64,000 bases of DNA, taken from the NCBI GenBank assembly GCA_039802605.1, contig JBDRWW010000008.1:1-64000 (forward strand). The letters are read 5' to 3'. The DNA is from a candidate division WOR-3 bacterium. Lineage in GTDB: Bacteria > Hydrothermota > Hydrothermia > LBFQ01. Both the position numbers and the translations under genes were made by a program. Each line of letters opens with the position of its first letter. Position 1 is the stretch's first letter. Under the pieces are notes generated by a model. That model worked only from the letters and a program-made list of their open reading frames with translations, had not been told where the DNA came from and searched no databases. This document shows positions 19,094-54,225 of the stretch, piece by piece.

Positions 19094-20141
19094 CTATCCT
19101 CTTTGCGGTTTTACCATCCCATAAAGGTATCTCCGTATTTTTAAACTTACCGAACTTTCTTTCAACCGCACCCGGTAAATCTTTTAGATTTTCCACGAGT
19201 TCGTTTGTTCCGAGTTTTATGGTTATAGGCCTTTCGGTGTTTGGCCTAAGGGTTATACAAGGTATCCCCAAAAAGGATGTCTCCTCCTGAATCCCTCCGG
19301 AATCCGTTATAACTAGCCCGGCACCCAGCATAAGGGATAAAAATTCAGTATATCTTAAAGGCTGAACGGTTGTAAATTTGGGTTTTAAACCCAATTCTTC
19401 AAGGTTTTTCCGCGTTCTCGGGTGTACGGGTAATATTATTGGGAATTTTTTTGAAATTTCGTTAAAGGTATGAACAATTTCCTTCAACCTATCGGGATTA
19501 TCGACATTTGAAGGCCTATGTAATGTTGAGACTATATAATAACCCCTTTCAAGTCCAAAACTTTCCCATACCTTTAAACTTTCCGCCCTAGGCAAAGCGT
19601 GTATGAGGCTGTCTATCATTATATTGCCCACCGTGAAAATCCCTTTTGGATCCTTTCCCTCTTTTAAAAGGTTTTCCGTGGCATCATAAGAAGGTGAAAA
19701 TAGGTAATCGGAAAGTGCATCCGTCGTTATCCTATTAATCTCCTCGGGCATACTCCAATCCCCACTCCTCAAACCCGCCTCAACATGGGCCAACCTTAAG
19801 CCCAAATGCTTTGCCGAAACCGATAGGGCTAAGGTTGAATTAACATCCCCAAAAACCACAACAAGATCCGGTTTTAAATCCTTTAAAACATTTTCCGAAA
19901 GGGAAATAATCTTTGAAATCTGCTGAACATTCGTATCGGAACCCACACCCAAATATATATCCGGTTTAGGTAGGTTAAAGTCCTCAAAAAAAGCCTGCGA
20001 TAGCTCGTAATCGTAATGCTGACCCGTATGCAATATAATGGGGTTTATACCCCTATCCTTTAAGGTATAATAAAGGGGAAAGAGTTTTACAAAATTTGGC
20101 CTTGCACCCGCAACCAATAAAACTTTAAAATTCGTATTCAT
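19062..20141 (-). CDS. wecB: UDP-N-acetylglucosamine 2-epimerase (non-hydrolysing)
   Basis: GARPNFVK, HTGQHYD, HVEAGLRS, MPEEINR, TDSGGIQEE; start moved to ATG 20141. Confidence 0.95.
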   Translation of the reverse strand: MNTNFKVLLVAGARPNFVKLFPLYYTLKDRGINPIILHTGQHYDYELSQAFFEDFNLPKPDIYLGVGSDTNVQQISKIISLSENVLKDLKPDLVVVFGDVNSTLALSVSAKHLGLRLAHVEAGLRSGDWSMPEEINRITTDALSDYLFSPSYDATENLLKEGKDPKGIFTVGNIMIDSLIHALPRAESLKVWESFGLERGYYIVSTLHRPSNVDNPDRLKEIVHTFNEISKKFPIILPVHPRTRKNLEELGLKPKFTTVQPLRYTEFLSLMLGAGLVITDSGGIQEETSFLGIPCITLRPNTERPITIKLGTNELVENLKDLPGAVERKFGKFKNTEIPLWDGKTAKRIVKVLGEIYGF

Positions 20142-21429
20142 CGTACAAATTGGGTAATAAAACCGTTTTTCCCTTAAAGTTCTCCCGTAAGGATTCCCTC
20201 GCCTCGTCTTCACCATGCACCAATATCAAAACATCCGGGTTGGCCACTTTTATCCATTCAACCAAATCATCCTTACCCGCATGCGATGAAAATCCGTTAA
20301 TGGTATAGATTTTTATATTCACATCGTACCAATTTCCCAAGATATAAACTTTCTTCTCGCCATCCAATATTCCCCTTCCCAATGTACCCTTTGCCTGATA
20401 ACCCACAAAAATCAAGGAGTTGTTTGGATCTTCTATCATATGCTTTAAATGGTGTATAGCCCTTCCCCCCGTTAGCATTCCCGAACCCGCCAATATTACC
20501 AAACCCGTGCTTATACCGTTAAGCCTTTTTGATTCTTCGACGGTTTTTGTGATGAGGAGGTTTTTCATTTTAAAGGGATTTCCCCGTTTTACCATTTCCC
20601 CCATCTCTTCGTCGTAGCATTCCGGAAACCTTAGGAACTCTTCCAGAATCCTTTCGGCCAACGGACTATCAAGGACGACCTTCCACTCAGATGGCCATAA
20701 AAGATTATCCTCCCAAAGTTTGAAAATATAGAGTATTTCCTGCGCCCTTTCAAGGGCAAATGTGGGTATTAGAACCTTTCCATAAGGTAAGGTTTCAAAA
20801 ATTGCCTTTTTCAATTCTTCTATGGACTCCTTTATCGGCTTGTGATTTCTATTACCGTATGTTGATTCGCATATAAGTATATCCGTTTTGTCGGGCGGTG
20901 AAGGGTCTCTTATTATGGGCTTGTTTTTATTCCCCAAATCACCGGAAAAGGTAAATCTTTTACCCTTATACTCAAACTCGTAAAATGCCGAACCGAGAAT
21001 ATGACCGGCATCCTTAACCCTAAACCTTAAACCGTCTATCTCGTATTCCCGGTTATATTCAACGAATTTTACGGGTAATTGCAAAGTCTTTTCCAAATCC
21101 TCTAAGGAATAAAGGGGATTGTCCTTGTCCATAACCTCATAAGCATCCGATAATATATGCCGAACCAACGACCATGTGGCCCTATGGGTGATAACTTCAC
21201 CCTTAAAACCGTTTTTTACGAGAACGGGCAACCTCCCAACATGGTCAAGGTGGGAGTGTGTTAAAAATATGTATCCTATTTCTTCAATACCTTCGGGAAC
21301 CTCAGTATTTTTTTCCTCGTAATCACCCTGAAAATAACCCGCATCTACTAAGAACCTTTTTTTATCAATTTCAACCATATGCATTGAGCCCGTAACGCAA
21401 CCGGCCGCACCGTAAAACCCGATTTTCAT
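20125..21429 (-). CDS. MBL-fold beta-CASP ribonuclease
   Basis: THSHLDHVG, AGHILGS, ESTYGNR, SGMLTGG, GYQAKGT, FSSHA. Confidence 0.93.
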   Translation of the reverse strand: MKIGFYGAAGCVTGSMHMVEIDKKRFLVDAGYFQGDYEEKNTEVPEGIEEIGYIFLTHSHLDHVGRLPVLVKNGFKGEVITHRATWSLVRHILSDAYEVMDKDNPLYSLEDLEKTLQLPVKFVEYNREYEIDGLRFRVKDAGHILGSAFYEFEYKGKRFTFSGDLGNKNKPIIRDPSPPDKTDILICESTYGNRNHKPIKESIEELKKAIFETLPYGKVLIPTFALERAQEILYIFKLWEDNLLWPSEWKVVLDSPLAERILEEFLRFPECYDEEMGEMVKRGNPFKMKNLLITKTVEESKRLNGISTGLVILAGSGMLTGGRAIHHLKHMIEDPNNSLIFVGYQAKGTLGRGILDGEKKVYILGNWYDVNIKIYTINGFSSHAGKDDLVEWIKVANPDVLILVHGEDEARESLRENFKGKTVLLPNLYDEYEF

Positions 21430-28525: not shown

Positions 28526-28603
28526 AAGATGGGTATTTTAAGGCCGCTGGGCAAAGTCGCAAGGGTTTTAATTCCACTATACAATATTTACCCGGAAAAA
28601 CCC

Positions 28604-30514
28604 ATGAAAAGGCAATCAAATAGGATAAATTTTAGAAAAGGTCCGAGGTGTTTAGGGCCTATTTCCAACTTGGAGGAACAGGTAAAACCGGATTGGTGGA
28701 GGAGGATTTTCAACTCCATATATCTAAAAACCGACGCGGATGTCGTGGATGACCAGAGGATAACCAAAAGGGAGATAGACCTGTTTTCGGAGATCCTAAA
28801 CCTCTCGCCGGAAGATAGGATTTTAGACCTGTGTTGTGGTCATGGGAGACATTCCCTTGAACTTGCTAGGAGGGGTTTTCGCAATGTTGAGGGTTTAGAC
28901 CGCTCGCATTATCTAATCCAAAAGGCCAAATCTCAGGCAAAAAAGGAAAATTTAAATGTTAGGTTTAGGGAAGGGGATGCGAGAAAACTACCGTATCCAC
29001 CGGATACATTTGATGTGGTTCTAATTTTGGGGAATAGTTTTGGATATTTTGAAACCGTTGAAGATGATTTAAGGGTTTTGAGGGAGGTTTTTAGGGTTCT
29101 CAAACCATGGGGTAGGTTACTCATTGATGTCGCCGATGGTGATTATCTAAGAAACAACTTTCAACCTAGGTCTTGGGAATGGATAGACAAAAAACTTTTC
29201 GTTTGTAGGGAGCGTTCCCTATCAATGGATAAACAGCGTTTAATATCAAGGGAAATAATCACGCATGTTGAGAAGGGGGTTATAGCGGATCAGTTTTATG
29301 CCGAAAGGTTATACACAAAGGAGAGTATTGCGGAACTATTAAAAGAGGCGGGTTTTAGCGATATAAAGTTTCACGGGGAAATATCCCCAAACTCCCAAAG
29401 GAATCAGGATTTGGGAATGATGGAAAGGAGGATTATCGTAACCGCCGTAGCCAGAAAGGAATGGACACCCATTAAAACAAAAAAGAAAAAGGAGATAAAG
29501 AATGTCGTAGTAATCCTTGGAGATCCTACAAAACCCGACCCGTTGAAACCCTTAGGTATCTTTGACGATGACGACTTTTATACCATAGATAAACTAAAGG
29601 ACGCCCTTAGGGAATTAAAGGGTTACAATTTCACATATCTTAACAACCACGATACCCTTATTTCCGACCTTATAAAAATGAAAAACAAAATAGACCTCGT
29701 TTTTAACCTTTGCGACGAAGGTTATAACAACGACCCTAGGAAGGAATTACATGTCCCGGCGTTATTGGAAATCCTTGATATACCGTATACAGGTTCCCCT
29801 CCCCAATGCCTTGCGTATTGCTATGATAAGTCCCTGGTTCGCGGTATTGCAAAAGAAATGGGTATTCCCGTTCCCGAGGCTTACTTTGTAAATCCGGAAG
29901 ACACCGCATTTGAGCTCCCCTTCGGTTTTCCCGTTATAGTCAAACCCAATTTTGGGGATTCGAGCTTTGGGATTACGCAAAAGAGCGTTTGCAATAATGT
30001 AGAGGAATTGATAAATGCCATATCCGACATTAGGGAAAAGTTCGGTTATGATAAGCCGATCTTGGTTGAAGAGTTCCTGACGGGAAAGGATTTAACCGTG
30101 GGAATTATAGGAAACCCACCGGATGACTATACGATTTTACCTATAATTGAAGAGGATTATTCGGCCCTTCCGCCGGATCTTCCAAAGATATGCGGCTATG
30201 AGGCCAAATGGCTCCCGGATTCGCCTTATTGGAAGATCAAATCCATCCCGGCCAACCTACCCGAAAATACGGAAAAGTTTATTGTAGAATGTTGTTTGAA
30301 GCTCTTTGAAAGGTTGGGTTGCAAGGATTATGCCCGTTTTGATTGGAGGCTTGATTCTGAAGGTAATCCCAAACTCCTTGAAGTTAACCCAAACCCGGGT
30401 TGGTGTTGGGATGGCCACCTCGCAAAGATGGCAAATATAGCGGGAATATCCTATGCCGATATGCTAAGAATGATATTGGAGGCAGCGGAAAAGAGGTTAA
30501 ATTTAGCCCGTTGA
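28604..30514 (+). CDS. Class I SAM-methyltransferase fused to D-Ala-D-Ala-ligase-like ATP-grasp domain
   Basis: ILDLCCGHGRH, GDAR, GNSFGYF; then PYTGS, IVKP, SSFGI, LVEEFL.G, ARFDWR, LEVNPNPG; probable start ATG 28604. Confidence 0.85.
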   Translation: MKRQSNRINFRKGPRCLGPISNLEEQVKPDWWRRIFNSIYLKTDADVVDDQRITKREIDLFSEILNLSPEDRILDLCCGHGRHSLELARRGFRNVEGLDRSHYLIQKAKSQAKKENLNVRFREGDARKLPYPPDTFDVVLILGNSFGYFETVEDDLRVLREVFRVLKPWGRLLIDVADGDYLRNNFQPRSWEWIDKKLFVCRERSLSMDKQRLISREIITHVEKGVIADQFYAERLYTKESIAELLKEAGFSDIKFHGEISPNSQRNQDLGMMERRIIVTAVARKEWTPIKTKKKKEIKNVVVILGDPTKPDPLKPLGIFDDDDFYTIDKLKDALRELKGYNFTYLNNHDTLISDLIKMKNKIDLVFNLCDEGYNNDPRKELHVPALLEILDIPYTGSPPQCLAYCYDKSLVRGIAKEMGIPVPEAYFVNPEDTAFELPFGFPVIVKPNFGDSSFGITQKSVCNNVEELINAISDIREKFGYDKPILVEEFLTGKDLTVGIIGNPPDDYTILPIIEEDYSALPPDLPKICGYEAKWLPDSPYWKIKSIPANLPENTEKFIVECCLKLFERLGCKDYARFDWRLDSEGNPKLLEVNPNPGWCWDGHLAKMANIAGISYADMLRMILEAAEKRLNLAR

Positions 30515-30609: not shown

Positions 30610-31851
30610 CTATGTCCCCTCTTTCCAAGTCCTCATAAGTTGTGCTTCCGAAGGTTTGTCAATCTCCACACCCAAACTTTCCAACTTCCTCCTGGCAACC
30701 TCATAATCCAATTCATCAGGGAGTTTATAAACCCTTTTCTCCAAGTTTTTCCAATTATCCTTTATATACAAAACTGCCAATGCCTGATTTGAGAAGGACA
30801 TATCCATAACCTCGGCCGGGTGTCCCTCGGCGGCCCCCAAATTGACAAGCCTACCATCCGCCAAAAGATAAACCTTTTTGCCATCCTTAAAAACATACTC
30901 CCTTAAATTGGGTTTTATCTCCTTAACTTCAACGGATAAATCCTCCAAGTCCCTTTTATTTATTTCCACATCAAAATGCCCGGCATTCGCCAAAATAACC
31001 CCATCCTTTGCAACTTCTAAGTGTTCCTTTCTAACAATATCGGGTTCTCCCGTGGCGGTTATAACCAAATCCGCCTCCTTTATTGCCTCCCCCATAGGTT
31101 TAACATAATAACCGTCCATATAAGCTTCAAGGGCCTTTATGGGGTCTATTTCCGTTATTACAACCTTACAACCCATACCCTTTAACCTCATGGCTATTCC
31201 CTTACCAACCCATCCATAACCCGCAACAACCGCCGTTTTCCCGGCGAGTAATATATTCGTAGCCCTTAAAATCCCATCAACCGTACTCTGCCCGGTACCG
31301 TACCTGTTATCAAACAGGAACTTCGTATATGAATCGTTAACCGCTATTATCGGATATTTTAAAACCCCTTCCTCTTCCATCTTTCTAAACCTTACAACTC
31401 CCGTTGTGGTTTCCTCCGTTCCTCCCCATATATCCTTCCACGCTCCGGATTTATGGGCTTCAACGGTTAAATCCGCACCATCGTCAAGGGTTATATGCGG
31501 CTTAAATTCAAGGCAGGAATAAATATCCGAGTAGTATTCCCTTTCGCTTTCCCCCCTCGTTGCAAAAACTTCAATGCCGTAGTATTTTACCAAAGCGGCG
31601 GCAACATCGTCCTGGGTTGATAAGGGGTTTGATGCGCATAACCTAACATCCGCACCGAGGGATTTTAGGGTTATTACGAGATTGGCGGTTTCGGTTGTTA
31701 CATGCAGGCAAGCCGCTATCCTTATACCTTTCAAGGGTTTTTGGTTTTCGTAATCGGCTCTTATGCTATTCAATACGGGCATTCTGCTTGAAGCCCATTC
31801 TATCCTTTTCTTTCCAATATCCGCAAGGGAAATATCCTTAATTCTTGACAA
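30610..31851 (-). CDS. ahcY: Adenosylhomocysteinase
   Basis: ACLHVT.ETA, ASNPLSTQD, EETTTGV, FDNRYGTGQS, GRLVNL, GHP..VMDMSF; start must be TTG 31851 because the upstream ORF extension is tRNA. Confidence 0.95.
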   Translation of the reverse strand: MSRIKDISLADIGKKRIEWASSRMPVLNSIRADYENQKPLKGIRIAACLHVTTETANLVITLKSLGADVRLCASNPLSTQDDVAAALVKYYGIEVFATRGESEREYYSDIYSCLEFKPHITLDDGADLTVEAHKSGAWKDIWGGTEETTTGVVRFRKMEEEGVLKYPIIAVNDSYTKFLFDNRYGTGQSTVDGILRATNILLAGKTAVVAGYGWVGKGIAMRLKGMGCKVVITEIDPIKALEAYMDGYYVKPMGEAIKEADLVITATGEPDIVRKEHLEVAKDGVILANAGHFDVEINKRDLEDLSVEVKEIKPNLREYVFKDGKKVYLLADGRLVNLGAAEGHPAEVMDMSFSNQALAVLYIKDNWKNLEKRVYKLPDELDYEVARRKLESLGVEIDKPSEAQLMRTWKEGT

Positions 31852-31852
31852 A

Positions 31853-31926
31853 TGGGCGCGGGAGGACTCGAACCTCCGACCTCCGGTATGTGAGACCGGC
31901 GCTCTAACCAACTGAGCTACGCGCCC
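31853..31926 (-). tRNA. tRNA-Val(CAC)
   Basis: GGGCGCG/CGCGCCC acceptor stem, CCGGT-CT-CAC-AT-ACCGG anticodon arm, GGTTCGAGTCC; no CCA. Confidence 0.96.
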
Positions 31927-31931
31927 AGAAA

Positions 31932-32005
31932 TCGGGGTGCCGGGATTTGAACCCGGGACCTCTTCCACCCCAAGGAAGCGCGCTACCAGGCTGCGCTACA
32001 CCCCG
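31932..32005 (-). tRNA. tRNA-Pro(GGG)
   Basis: CGGGGTG/CACCCCG stem, CTTCC-TT-GGG-GT-GGAAG, GGTTCAAATCC; no CCA. Confidence 0.96.
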
Positions 32006-32016
32006 ATGTTTTTAAG

Positions 32017-32091
32017 TCGGGGCGCCCGGATTTGAACCGGGGACCTCCTGCTCCCAAGGCAGGCGCGCTAACCAGACTGCGCTACGCCCCG
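32017..32091 (-). tRNA. tRNA-Pro(TGG)
   Basis: CGGGGCG/CGCCCCG stem, CCTGC-CT-TGG-GA-GCAGG; no CCA. Confidence 0.96.
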
Positions 32092-32102
32092 CCCTTTATA
32101 AA

Positions 32103-32176
32103 TCGGGGCGAGAGGACTTGAACCTCCGACCTCCCGGTCCCGAACCGGGCGCGCTACCAGGCTGCGCTACGCCCCG
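32103..32176 (-). tRNA. tRNA-Pro(CGG)
   Basis: CGGGGCG/CGCCCCG stem, CCCGG-TT-CGG-GA-CCGGG; no CCA. Confidence 0.96.
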
Positions 32177-32189
32177 GAGGTTTTAAAGG

Positions 32190-32263
32190 TGGTCCCGGGA
32201 GGATTCGAACCTCCGACCTCGCGGTTATCAGCCGCGCGCTCTAACCACCTGAGCTACGGGACC
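32190..32263 (-). tRNA. tRNA-Ile(GAT)
   Basis: GGTCCCG/CGGGACC stem, CGCGG-CT-GAT-AA-CCGCG; followed by CCT, not CCA. Confidence 0.96.
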
Positions 32264-32278
32264 ACTTGGAAGGTGGAT

Positions 32279-32284
32279 ATTATA
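32279..32284 (-). promoter_or_regulatory. -10 box of the tRNA-Ile/Pro/Pro/Pro/Val-ahcY transcript
   Basis: TATAAT 15 nt upstream of the tRNA-Ile 5' end. Confidence 0.6.
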
Positions 32285-32320
32285 AAGTTGAAAAGGTTTT
32301 ATCAACCCGATAATACACGC

Positions 32321-33100
32321 TTGAAGTATTTAAGGCTTTTGCTATTGTTTTGGAAGACCTCTTTGAAGGTTGAAACGGAATACAGGTTAAACTTTTATTT
32401 TGCCGTAATTAGCAGTTTTATAAACTTTGTGGGTAGCGTTTTTGGTTTAAGCGTATTTTACAAAATCACAAATACCCTTGGAGGTTGGACGTTTGAGGAG
32501 GCGTTGGTGGTTATGGGTATTTTCATCCTCATAGAGGGCTTTTCCCAGTCCGTTTTAAACCCGAATTTAAATTATATTGTGGAATATGTTTGGAAGGGCA
32601 CGCTTGATTTTGTTTTGTTAAAACCCGTAGATAGTCAATTCTATCTATCTTTTAGGAACTTTTCAATTTGGGGTATACCCAACGCCTTATTCGGTTTGGG
32701 GTTAATAATTTACGGAGCCCTTAAATTGAAGGCCGGCTTGTTGGACATAATAACGGGAATATTTGCCGTTTTCATTTCACTGTTGATACTTTACAGTATA
32801 TGGTTCGTTTTGGGCAGTTTGAGTATTTGGTTTGTGAAGATTTACAATATAACTTTTGTTTTGAGGCAGCTGATAGAAGCGGGGAGGTATCCGATAACCG
32901 CCTATCCAGAAGTTTATAGGTTTATATTCACATTTGTGGTACCGGTTATATTTTTAACAACCGTACCGGCAAGTTTTATAAAGGGTGGTGGAAAAACGAT
33001 TTCGCTTATTATTTCGATGTGCGTAGCGGTATTTTTGTTCGTTTTTAGCAGGATTTTCTGGAATTTTGCAAGGAGGCATTATTCAAGCGCATCAAGCTGA
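32321..33100 (+). CDS. ABC-2 family (DUF990-like) permease
   Basis: EYRLNF, LGGWTFEE, GTLDFVLLKP, GRYPITAYP, Y.SASS end; start moved to TTG 32321 because the ORF extension is antisense tRNA-Ile. Confidence 0.85.
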   Translation: MKYLRLLLLFWKTSLKVETEYRLNFYFAVISSFINFVGSVFGLSVFYKITNTLGGWTFEEALVVMGIFILIEGFSQSVLNPNLNYIVEYVWKGTLDFVLLKPVDSQFYLSFRNFSIWGIPNALFGLGLIIYGALKLKAGLLDIITGIFAVFISLLILYSIWFVLGSLSIWFVKIYNITFVLRQLIEAGRYPITAYPEVYRFIFTFVVPVIFLTTVPASFIKGGGKTISLIISMCVAVFLFVFSRIFWNFARRHYSSASS

Positions 33101-52605: not shown

Positions 52606-52917
52606 TTACTCCTGCAATAACTTAACCTTAACATCCACGCCGGGAGGTATGTCTATCTGGGAGATCTTATCCATGGTTTCAGGTGTTGCGTTTGAGATTT
52701 CTATTAACCTTGCATGTCTCTTTAAAATGAAATGCTCTTGTCCCCTCTTGTCAATATGAGGACCCCTAATTACGGCAAATAGGGTTTTGCGCGTTGGTAG
52801 GGGGATCGGCCCGGATACCGTTGCCCCCGTGGATCTGGCTGTCACAACGATTTGTTTTGCAACCCTATCCAACACCGCGGGATCAAACGATTTCAGTTTT
52901 AGCCTAATCTTATCCAT
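52606..52917 (-). CDS. rpsJ: 30S ribosomal protein S10
   Basis: IRLKLKSFD, GPIPLPT, PH.DK. Confidence 0.97.
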   Translation of the reverse strand: MDKIRLKLKSFDPAVLDRVAKQIVVTARSTGATVSGPIPLPTRKTLFAVIRGPHIDKRGQEHFILKRHARLIEISNATPETMDKISQIDIPPGVDVKVKLLQE

Positions 52918-54134
52918 TATTCAATGATTTCGGTTATAACCCCGGCTCCAACCGTTCTTCCACCCTCGCGTATTGCAAACCTCAAACCCCTTTCTATTGC
53001 AACGGGATATATGAGTTCTACCTCCATCTGTACATTATCGCCGGGCATTGCCATCTCCCTACCGTCTGCGAGTTTGATGGTTCCGGTAACATCCGTTGTT
53101 CTGAAATAGAATTGGGGCCTATAACCGTTGAAGAAGGGGGTACTCCTTCCACCCTCTTCCTTTTTCAGGATATAAACCTCCGCCTTAAACTTCCTGTGAG
53201 CCTTTATTGAGCCGGGCTTTGCCAAAACCATACCCCTCTCAACATCATCTTTGCTAACACCCCTCAAAAGGGCGCCTATGTTATCACCGGGTATGGCCTC
53301 ATCCAAAACTTTGCGGAACATTTCTATGGATGTAACCACGGTTTTCAGGGGTTCATCGCGGAAGCCCACTATTTCAACCTCATCACCGGCTTTTAATATA
53401 CCCCTTTCAACCCTTCCCGTAACAACGGTTCCACGACCCGTAATGCTGAATACATCCTCTACGGCCATTAGGAACGGTTTGTCTATCTCCCTCACGGGCT
53501 CGGGTATATATTCGTCCAAGGCCTCCACGAGTTTAAGTATGGCCCCGGCCCCTATGGGATCATCAAAATTGGAAGGGTTTTGTAAGGCCCTAAGGGCAGA
53601 ACCCCTTATGACCGGAACCTCATCACCCGGATATCCGTATTGGTTTAATAGATCCCTAACCTCAAGCTCCACAAGGTCCAAAAGTTCGGGGTCATCAACG
53701 AGGTCAACCTTGTTTATAAACACCACTATCGCCGGAACATTTACCTGACGGGCCAAGAGGACATGCTCCCTTGTCTGGGGCATTACGGAGTCTACTGCGG
53801 AAACCACGAGAATAGCACCATCCATTTGTGCGGCTCCGGTTATCATGTTTTTGATGTAGTCCGCGTGCCCGGGGCAGTCTATGTGGGCGTAGTGGTATTT
53901 ATCCGATTCGTATTCCACATGCGCTATGTTTATCGTTAGGATTTTCGTTTCGTCTTTCCTCGCTATCTTTGCATCCGCCTTTGCAACCTCGTCGTAGCTC
54001 TTGGGTTGGGCCTTACCCTTGGCGGCCAAAACATGTGTTATTGCCGCCGTTAGAGTGGTTTTACCATGGTCTATATGCCCTATGGTGCCAACATTTTTAT
54101 GCGGTTTTGTCCTAACAAATTTCTCCTTCGCCAT
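52917..54134 (-). CDS. tuf: Elongation factor Tu (atypical switch I)
   Basis: [53 protein letters not shown]. Confidence 0.98.
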
Positions 54135-54153
54135 TTTCCTTACCTCCTTTAAA

Positions 54154-54225
54154 CTGCGGGGCAGGGACTCGAACCCCGATCTCCTGATCCAGAGTCAGGC
54201 GTGTTGCCAATTACACCACCCCGCA
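54154..54225 (-). tRNA. tRNA-Gln(CTG)
   Basis: TGCGGGG/CCCCGCA stem, G73, CCTGA-CT-CTG-GA-TCAGG; no CCA. Confidence 0.95.

Follow-up and report, generated by a model that had tools for sequence, protein, structure and literature searches.

A proposed near-leaderless mRNA of ahcY behind a CCA-less tRNA-Val gene in Candidatus Caldipriscus: evidence for a genome-wide, punctuation-like arrangement of tRNA and protein-coding genes

How can a protein-coding gene be expressed when its start codon lies a single nucleotide behind a tRNA gene? The question is raised by ahcY, the gene for adenosylhomocysteinase, in a 64,000-nucleotide (nt) stretch of DNA (the window, contig C8) from a hot-spring bacterium of the genus Candidatus Caldipriscus (candidate division WOR-3), whose genome (G000) is represented by a 1.65-Mb, 23-contig, 90%-complete metagenome-type assembly. 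In the window, ahcY directly follows an array of five tRNA genes that ends in tRNA-Val (Table 1). The comparisons described below suggest that ahcY is probably transcribed from the promoter of the tRNA array and released as a near-leaderless mRNA. They also indicate that its junction with tRNA-Val is one example of a design that runs through the whole genome in Candidatus Caldipriscus and recurs in weaker form in related genera.

The tRNA-Val gene scores 75.8 bits against a gathering score of 29 and covers positions 1-71 of the RF00005 model in a canonical cloverleaf register, with a 7-bp acceptor stem, U8, the anticodon CAC at positions 34-36 and the discriminator A73 at 31853; the span given by ARAGORN is one base wider on each side than the Rfam span. 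On the minus strand, the 3′ strand of the acceptor stem (CGCGCCC) is followed by discriminator A31853, by T31852 and by TTG at 31851-31849, which is in frame with LSRIKDISLADIGKKRIEWASSRMP... through to the stop codon at 30610-30612. These coordinates, the lack of an encoded CCA and the five-tRNA array are exactly as described in the initial annotation of the locus. In the predicted fold, the acceptor stem and the T arm of tRNA-Val persist when the first 47 nt past the discriminator are attached.

The initial annotation had also read the TTG as the start of ahcY, on the ground that the next ATG would truncate a conserved segment, and the comparative evidence upholds this. The protein matches the NCBIfam profile TIGR00936 over its full length at 623.8 bits (cut-off 497.6), with profile positions 2-416 of 416 aligned to residues 3-413 as counted from the TTG, and it also matches the Pfam families AdoHcyase and AdoHcyase_NAD. 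AhcY was found in 39 of the 41 genomes of the class, and most of these matches reach query residue 1-4. Upstream regions were compared for 30 fetched ahcY loci, three from the same genus and 27 from other genera, to which the same-genus genome G001 was added separately. By-eye reading showed that ahcY of the sister genus begins ATG-TCC-CGG-ATA-AAG-GAC (MSRIKD) or with MPHVKD, its ATG being exactly aligned with the TTG; outside the genus, again by eye, an in-frame ATG was seen at or just upstream of the aligned N-terminus in 26 of the 27 loci, the remaining one (L024) being ambiguous. On these comparative grounds, the TTG is the true ahcY start, and the AhcY N-terminal peptide is predicted to be (M)SRIKDISLADIGK.

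A consensus promoter scan of the same strand between 30400 and 32500 returned a sole site, at 32305-32277 upstream of tRNA-Ile, and the GGAGG closest to ahcY, at 31877-31873, forms one side (5′) of the tRNA-Val T-stem, 21 nt ahead of the TTG. The view that there is room for neither a promoter nor a Shine-Dalgarno (SD) sequence in front of ahcY was thus confirmed. Among the 30 ahcY loci, tRNAs adjoin ahcY only in the three of the same genus. The sequence CGCGCCC-A-T-TTG stands behind an identical five-tRNA array in G000, G001, G003 and G004, that is, in all four same-genus genomes with an ahcY 5′ region; in a further genome of the genus, G002, no ahcY match was found. Within the genus, AhcY proteins share 82-84% amino-acid identity, and differences in the early codons fall mostly at third positions. 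The ahcY genes of the sister genus and of family f2 are each led by a separate promoter-like element, spaced as TAACAT-7-8 nt-ATG or TAAAAT/TAAACT-9 nt-ATG, and in more distant relatives the gene is preceded by a GGAGG-type SD sequence. tRNA-Val(CAC) precedes nuoH in the sister-genus genome G007 and ahcY in Caldipriscus, a reshuffling in which ahcY exchanged a promoter and an ATG for a tRNA and a TTG.

Table 1. Coordinates of the tRNA array, its junction with ahcY and associated features in the window
Feature	Position	Strand	Basis or remark
Promoter-like site of the tRNA array (TTGATA, 17 nt, TAATAT, the latter overlapping TATAAT)	32277..32305	-	Consensus scan
tRNA-Ile(GAU), at the head of the array, CCA not encoded	32190..32263	-	ARAGORN and Rfam RF00005, 74.1 bits
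tRNA-Pro(CGG)	32103..32176	-	ARAGORN and RF00005, 64.8 bits
tRNA-Pro(UGG)	32017..32091	-	ARAGORN and RF00005, 70.5 bits
tRNA-Pro(GGG), followed by a 5-nt spacer, TTTCT	31932..32005	-	ARAGORN and RF00005, 66.4 bits
tRNA-Val(CAC), discriminator A31853, no CCA, T-stem GGAGG 31877-31873	31853..31926	-	RF00005, 75.8 bits
Single-base spacer T	31852	-	With the TT of the start codon, forms the Y-T-T trailer that nearly all tRNA genes of G000 share
TTG start codon of ahcY	31849..31851	-	Aligned with the ATG of sister-genus orthologues; TTG in 4/4 same-genus genomes
ahcY (adenosylhomocysteinase), 413 codons plus stop (30610-30612)	30610..31851	-	TIGR00936, Pfam
First in-frame ATG (MPVLN), not taken as the start	31780..31782	-	Would cost 23 conserved residues

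The same arrangement recurs throughout the genome. ARAGORN identified 46 tRNA genes in G000, none of which encodes CCA (0/46). Discriminators were placed by a script that combined the U8 rule with the best 7-bp acceptor stem; the first ATG, GTG or TTG past the discriminator that opens an open reading frame (ORF) of at least 40 aa was taken as the start. By this rule, 37 of the 46 tRNAs are followed by an ORF start within 25 nt. After four array-internal tRNAs (Ile and three Pro) were set aside, the spacer measured 0-5 nt behind 30 of the 42 cluster-terminal tRNAs (1, 12, 4, 9, 2 and 2 cases at 0, 1, 2, 3, 4 and 5 nt, respectively), 8-12 nt behind five and 19 nt, with a clear SD sequence, behind one, tRNA-Gln(CUG), which is followed by tuf; no ORF begins within 25 nt of the other six. 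When ORFs of at least 100 aa are required, 24 of the 42 tRNAs still have one within 0-5 nt. The chance of finding a start within 5 nt is 7.6% at random positions and 11.8% after any YTT for ORFs of at least 40 aa, and 4.3% and 6.8%, respectively, for those of at least 100 aa; measured against chance, the 24 of 42 have a binomial probability of about 1e-17. The 30 abutting junctions are spread over 14 contigs. The tRNA-Gln(CUG) gene lies in the window itself, at 54154-54225, with the spacer TTTAAAGGAGGTAAGGAAA and the tuf ATG at 54134 (unit 52917-54225, minus strand; EF-Tu matches its profile over the full length, 1:1), so that an SD-led tRNA-mRNA unit and abutment coexist in the window.

Whether the abutting starts are genuine was judged from the N-termini of the encoded proteins. 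A family scan against NCBIfam (E<=1e-10) covered 36 proteins, namely 34 junction ORFs on other contigs with spacers of at most 12 nt, together with AhcY and EF-Tu. For 18 of the 30 junction ORFs with spacers of 0-5 nt, the profile alignment sets in within residues 1-11 and profile positions 1-12: AhcY, the ribosomal proteins L28 and L33, MurA, Asd, PurB, Prs, PdxT, FadD, an Rrf2 regulator, a 2-hydroxyacid dehydrogenase, a GalE-like epimerase, a Gfo/Idh-type oxidoreductase, a P-type ATPase HMA domain, a CC/Se-motif protein, NuoH, NuoA and CcmE. The alignments begin at 1:1 for MurA, L28, L33 and Rrf2, at 2:1 for Asd and PdxT, at 3:1 for Prs and at 5:4 for PurB. Judged by these alignments, the abutting junction starts are real. 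No second copy of rpmB, rpmG, murA, asd, prs, pdxT or ahcY exists in the assembly; with junction genes such as rpmB and murA in single copy, the cell must therefore express them from this arrangement. A separate observation concerns the ORF behind tRNA-Leu(CAG) (L131, G000:C5:46697-47179), which encodes only 160 aa matching N-terminal (24-69) and C-terminal (315-410) positions of diaminopimelate decarboxylase profiles and looks like an internally deleted lysA.

The tRNA genes are followed by a nearly uniform trailer, in which position +1 past the discriminator is a pyrimidine in 46 of 46 genes, +2 is T in 43 and +3 is T in 42. Junction ORFs start with TTG in 23 of 30 cases and with ATG in the remaining seven; the TTG overlaps the trailer (N73-Y-TTG or N73-TTG), and the ATG comes after it (YTT-ATG). 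Behind promoters TTG shows no peak, and TTG starts occur almost only at tRNA junctions, which argues that the 5′ ends there are made by cleavage, for which no initiating purine is needed, and not by a hidden promoter. In the one case with a spacer of 0, tRNA-Glu(UUC) is followed by purB, the TTG of which aligns with the ATG of G007 and with profile position ~1, so that only a cut directly after the discriminator fits all of the junction starts. Where no gene follows, the T run behind a tRNA is often longer; the short U run may therefore double as a leaky terminator and so control the extent of read-through into the gene.

Starting translation at the 5′ end or close to it would not be exceptional in this organism. 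ATG codons opening ORFs of at least 100 aa are found 7, 8, 9 and 10 nt behind TAnAAT in 96, 183, 148 and 58 cases, respectively, where the background is about 15-25 at each distance; a small peak is seen for GTG, and none for a control hexamer. The corresponding peak for GGAGG, with 63, 57, 39 and 43 cases at 6, 7, 8 and 9 nt from the ATG and a background of about 20, is smaller. A promoter element with the consensus CCTTATAAT is located 8-16 nt, mostly 9-13 nt, upstream of 41 of the 42 cluster-terminal tRNAs, and an element of the same type stands 8 nt before the 5′ end of RNase P RNA. From these distances to tRNA and rnpB 5′ ends it follows that transcription probably starts about 8-9 nt past TATAAT, which is the position of the A of the ATGs counted above. 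By these counts, several hundred genes appear to be leaderless and to outnumber the SD-led class, and many tRNAs would carry almost no 5′ leader. Upstream genes do not end at tRNAs, since the promoter element stands 8-16 nt ahead of nearly all of them. The promoter consensus can also be given as about TTCAnCCTTATAAT, with examples at C1:59937-59981 before tRNA-Lys and at C11:7825-7864 before rnpB.

The distribution of abutment among relatives was surveyed in seven genomes, using the best 30 of 45-47 tRNA matches per genome, a sample in which long-arm tRNAs are under-represented; ORFs of at least 100 aa were counted where at least 330 nt of downstream sequence was present, and array-internal tRNAs were set aside. 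Starts within 5 nt were found behind 14 of 25 tRNAs in G003 of the same genus, 7 of 29 (with five more at 6-12 nt) in G007 of the sister genus, and 11 of 25 in G017 and 2 of 27 in G012, both of family f2, and behind none in three other genomes of the class (0/28 in G020, 0/29 in G024 and 0/31 in G031). In the class-level relatives that lack abutment, ahcY or rpmG carries an SD sequence. Several partnerships are kept across genera (tRNA-Lys(UUU) with murA, tRNA-Cys with the Rrf2 gene, tRNA-Gly(UCC) with rpmB, tRNA-Trp with rpmG and tRNA-Thr(GGU) with pdxT), and others are reshuffled.

Some of these genomes show features of their own. In G012 (L337-L366), genes behind tRNAs mostly have their own TAAAAT/TATAAT box directly past the tRNA, with the ATG 19-23 nt from the discriminator, and a promoter-type solution here takes the place of abutment within the same order. 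In G024 (L307-L336), where 10 of 32 tRNAs encode CCA, the ATG or TTG of a long ORF lies 6-12 nt downstream of 11 of 29 cluster-terminal tRNAs, behind pyrimidine-only, SD-less spacers, which may represent a longer-spacer version of the same principle. Both G003 and G007 have an 86-aa ORF with a TTG at spacer 0 after tRNA-Gln(UUG), the N-terminus of which presumably resembles GatC.

Taken together, the lack of room for a promoter or an SD sequence and the sole promoter-like site upstream of tRNA-Ile make a punctuation-like release the best explanation for the expression of ahcY. Under this explanation, ahcY, having no promoter or RBS of its own, would be transcribed from 32305-32277 as the tail of the Ile/Pro/Pro/Pro/Val transcript; an endonuclease would then cut immediately past the tRNA-Val discriminator, at a point that we infer to lie between 31853 and 31852, and so ready the CCA-less tRNA for CCA addition. 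The same cut would free an mRNA that begins U-UUG, with a 1-nt leader and presumably a 5′ monophosphate, and the ribosome would translate it in the leaderless mode that several hundred other genes appear to use. We infer co-transcription, the cut with its exact position and its enzyme, and translation from the 5′-proximal UUG from sequence, and regard transcription from the tRNA promoter followed by a cut right after the discriminator as likely, if well short of certain. In outline, this is the mechanism put forward in the initial annotation, two elements of which found no support. RNase Z had been named as the nuclease, a point taken up below, and the arrangement had been thought to couple S-adenosylhomocysteine recycling to tRNA synthesis and methylation. 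That coupling was rejected on two grounds: the junction genes have unrelated functions (murA, asd, purB, prs, nuoA, nuoH, rpmB, rpmG, fadD and others, within the 30 of 42 cluster-terminal tRNAs that have an abutting gene), and ahcY of the sister genus is promoter-led and not linked to a tRNA.

Several observations weigh against the proposed release, the most direct of which concerns the enzyme. RNase Z, on which the textbook mechanism depends, was not found in the 90%-complete G000: its contigs gave no match to TIGR02651 at E<=0.001, the best match at E<=0.01 reaching 16.5 bits, and the cut-off was exceeded in none of the 41 genomes of the class, families f3 and f8 giving partial matches of 73-130 bits. 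G003 encodes a 231-aa RNase-Z-like metallo-beta-lactamase (MBL) protein that scores 60 bits against a cut-off of 293, and tblastn searches of G000 with this protein and with that of family f3 found no counterpart. Neither RNase E/G nor RNase J was found in the same incomplete assembly. The ORF starts and discriminators rest on our own rule and script; eight of the 30 junction ORFs have no family, and for four more the family match is uninformative on the N-terminus. Abutment is patchy inside the order, as the low count in G012 shows, and related genomes are not independent samples. For the region 31450-32350, three raw metatranscriptome runs yielded two, zero and one partly fitting reads and a contig run a single 32-nt piece of tRNA-Pro, too little to speak to expression or 5′ ends. 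Finally, according to a review, leaderless mRNAs of model bacteria are poorly initiated from UUG (PMC9031893).

Other processing enzymes were recovered in G000. The 5′-cutting activity is represented by the RNA component of RNase P (RF00010, 211.6 bits, C11:7865-8270), and two class-II nucleotidyltransferases of the CCA-adding type are encoded, as is RNase Y (635 bits). Four MBL-fold proteins were found, a UPF0173-type hydrolase, a beta-CASP protein and two lactonase/glyoxalase-like proteins, none of which is a credible rnz product. The beta-CASP protein (434 aa, 20125-21429, minus strand, in the window) scores 372 bits against Cas14 (cut-off 800) and 247 bits against the archaeal aCPSF1 catalytic core (cut-off 580), and is a candidate RNA endonuclease. 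Cleavage at the 3′ side of CCA-less tRNAs in the absence of a tRNase Z homologue has been reported for Propionibacterium acnes (PMC3848588). A more far-reaching proposal, possible but doubtful, is that punctuation is genome-wide and RNase-Z-independent: an endonuclease would read the tRNA body plus Y-U-U and make the 5′-monophosphate ends of at least 30 mRNAs, including those of single-copy ribosomal-protein and cell-wall genes, with UUG serving as a start almost only there, so that tRNA maturation would amount to mRNA activation. Candidate nucleases for this role that are present in the genome are RNase Y and the aCPSF1-like beta-CASP protein.

Other explanations of the junction differ in where the 5′ end of the translated RNA would lie. 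The tRNA-mRNA precursor might be translated uncut, the ribosome starting at the UUG or AUG behind the folded tRNA independently of an SD sequence or aided by the acceptor/T-arm helix, with the tRNA maturing later or being derived from transcripts that end at the U run. This would fit the failure to find RNase Z, E/G and J in G000, the possibility that the Y-U-U trailer serves just as well as a weak terminator (gene-less tRNAs often having longer T runs), and the predicted fold, in which the tRNA and the start of the coding region form structures apart from each other. We nevertheless consider it rather unlikely, as about 12-15 single-stranded nt are required by a 30S or 70S ribosome ahead of the P-site codon, where this RNA has the GC-rich acceptor stem of a thermophile's tRNA; moreover, the spacers of 0-5 nt match the leader lengths behind promoters, and all 46 tRNAs need a free discriminator for CCA addition, so that a cut or trimming must occur here anyway. 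An SD function of the T-stem was rejected, GGAGG being present in just three of the 30 abutting tRNAs and about 21 nt away, which likewise counts against an uncut precursor. Still less probable is a separate transcription start inside the tRNA gene, at which the T-loop TTCRANT, for example, would act as a -10-like box and leave a short GC-rich leader or none. The T-loops TTCAAAT, TTCGAAT and TTCGAGT do share three to four of six letters with TATAAT, but they lack the A at -10 position 2 and stand 14-16 nt from the start, as against 7-10 nt for leaderless genes; the promoter scan found no site in or after tRNA-Val, and the leaderless genes behind promoters start with ATG or in some cases GTG, not with the TTG seen at most junctions.

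The two remaining alternatives question the junction itself. Translation of ahcY might begin at the downstream ATG 31782 (MPVLN), the open frame up to the tRNA being fortuitous. ATG is the usual start codon here, and the frame stays open through tRNA-Val up to GTG 31968, a codon rejected as a gene start, so that fortuitous open frames do exist. This reading is nonetheless highly improbable, since the 23 residues ahead of the ATG align from profile position 2 and are conserved in all relatives, the differences within the genus lie mainly at third codon positions, and no SD sequence precedes ATG 31782. The probability that the tRNA array and ahcY were joined by an error of assembly or binning is negligible: a metagenome-type assembly of 23 contigs might contain such errors, but the junction is no artefact of this kind because it is kept in four assemblies with diverged coding sequences, and thirty analogous junctions occur on 14 contigs.

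The 3′ end of ahcY faces a convergent gene (28529-30514, plus strand) that encodes a 661-aa fusion of an S-adenosylmethionine-dependent methyltransferase (residues ~94-203) and a D-Ala-D-Ala-ligase-type ATP-grasp domain (443-651). On the other side, a listed 303-aa ORF (32189-33100, plus strand) runs antisense through tRNA-Ile; its match to the ABC-2 transporter permease family (PF06182, profile positions 9-229) begins only from ~32438, and its true start therefore lies further downstream.

The arrangement invites comparison with the tRNA punctuation of mitochondria, which was reportedly described by Ojala, Montoya and Attardi in 1981. In both, CCA-less tRNA genes abut coding sequences at a distance of zero to a few nucleotides (1 nt at ahcY, 0-5 nt at 30 of 42 tRNAs here), and in mitochondria, the mRNAs of which have no SD sequence and are practically leaderless, the translatable 5′ end is regarded as a product of tRNA excision, as is proposed here. 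Unlike mitochondria, Candidatus Caldipriscus is a free-living bacterium in which only the 3′ side of the tRNA abuts genes, so that mRNA 3′ ends are not set by a following tRNA; RNase Z, the counterpart of ELAC2, was not found, and the start is mostly a UUG that overlaps the Y-U-U trailer. As nearly every tRNA has its own promoter, there would be no genome-length precursor either. A second parallel is the thrU-tyrU-glyT-thrT-tufB operon of Escherichia coli, in which, as is proposed for ahcY, a tRNA promoter also serves a protein gene and processing frees the coding part from the tRNAs. In operons of the tufB type, however, a long spacer with an SD sequence drives translation, whereas ahcY has a spacer of 1 nt and no SD sequence; the tRNA-Gln/tuf unit of the window fits the tufB type.

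Leaderless mRNAs defined by promoters have been reported from Mycobacterium, Deinococcus, Actinobacteria and archaea (PMC4633059, PMC4007540, PMC3848588). As is proposed for ahcY, they are translated without an SD sequence from a start close to the 5′ end, and several hundred genes of G000 appear to be of this kind; they differ in having primary triphosphate 5′ ends and AUG or GUG starts, whereas the ends proposed here would be monophosphates made by cleavage and the start is UUG in 23 of 30 cases. A 2022 review of bacterial leaderless translation mentions MazF as the only post-transcriptional source of such mRNAs (PMC9031893). A search of the full-text literature, with subscription journals outside its reach, turned up no account of bacterial leaderless genes that abut tRNAs, and none of any leaderless gene in WOR-3.

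If the proposed release is correct, it would be, within the searchable literature, the first genome-wide tRNA punctuation in a free-living bacterium, an arrangement previously known from mitochondria, and it would occur in a thermophilic lineage that branches deeply and is dominated by leaderless translation. For annotation, programs that look for an RBS and do not let coding genes overlap with RNA genes will probably set the starts of such genes wrongly, including the essential murA, asd, prs, rpmB and rpmG. The finding would likewise bear on how CCA-less tRNAs mature without RNase Z and on whether UUG can work as a start at a processed 5′ end. For the evolution of translation initiation, it would bear on the idea that the leaderless mode is an old one and that mitochondria are not unique.

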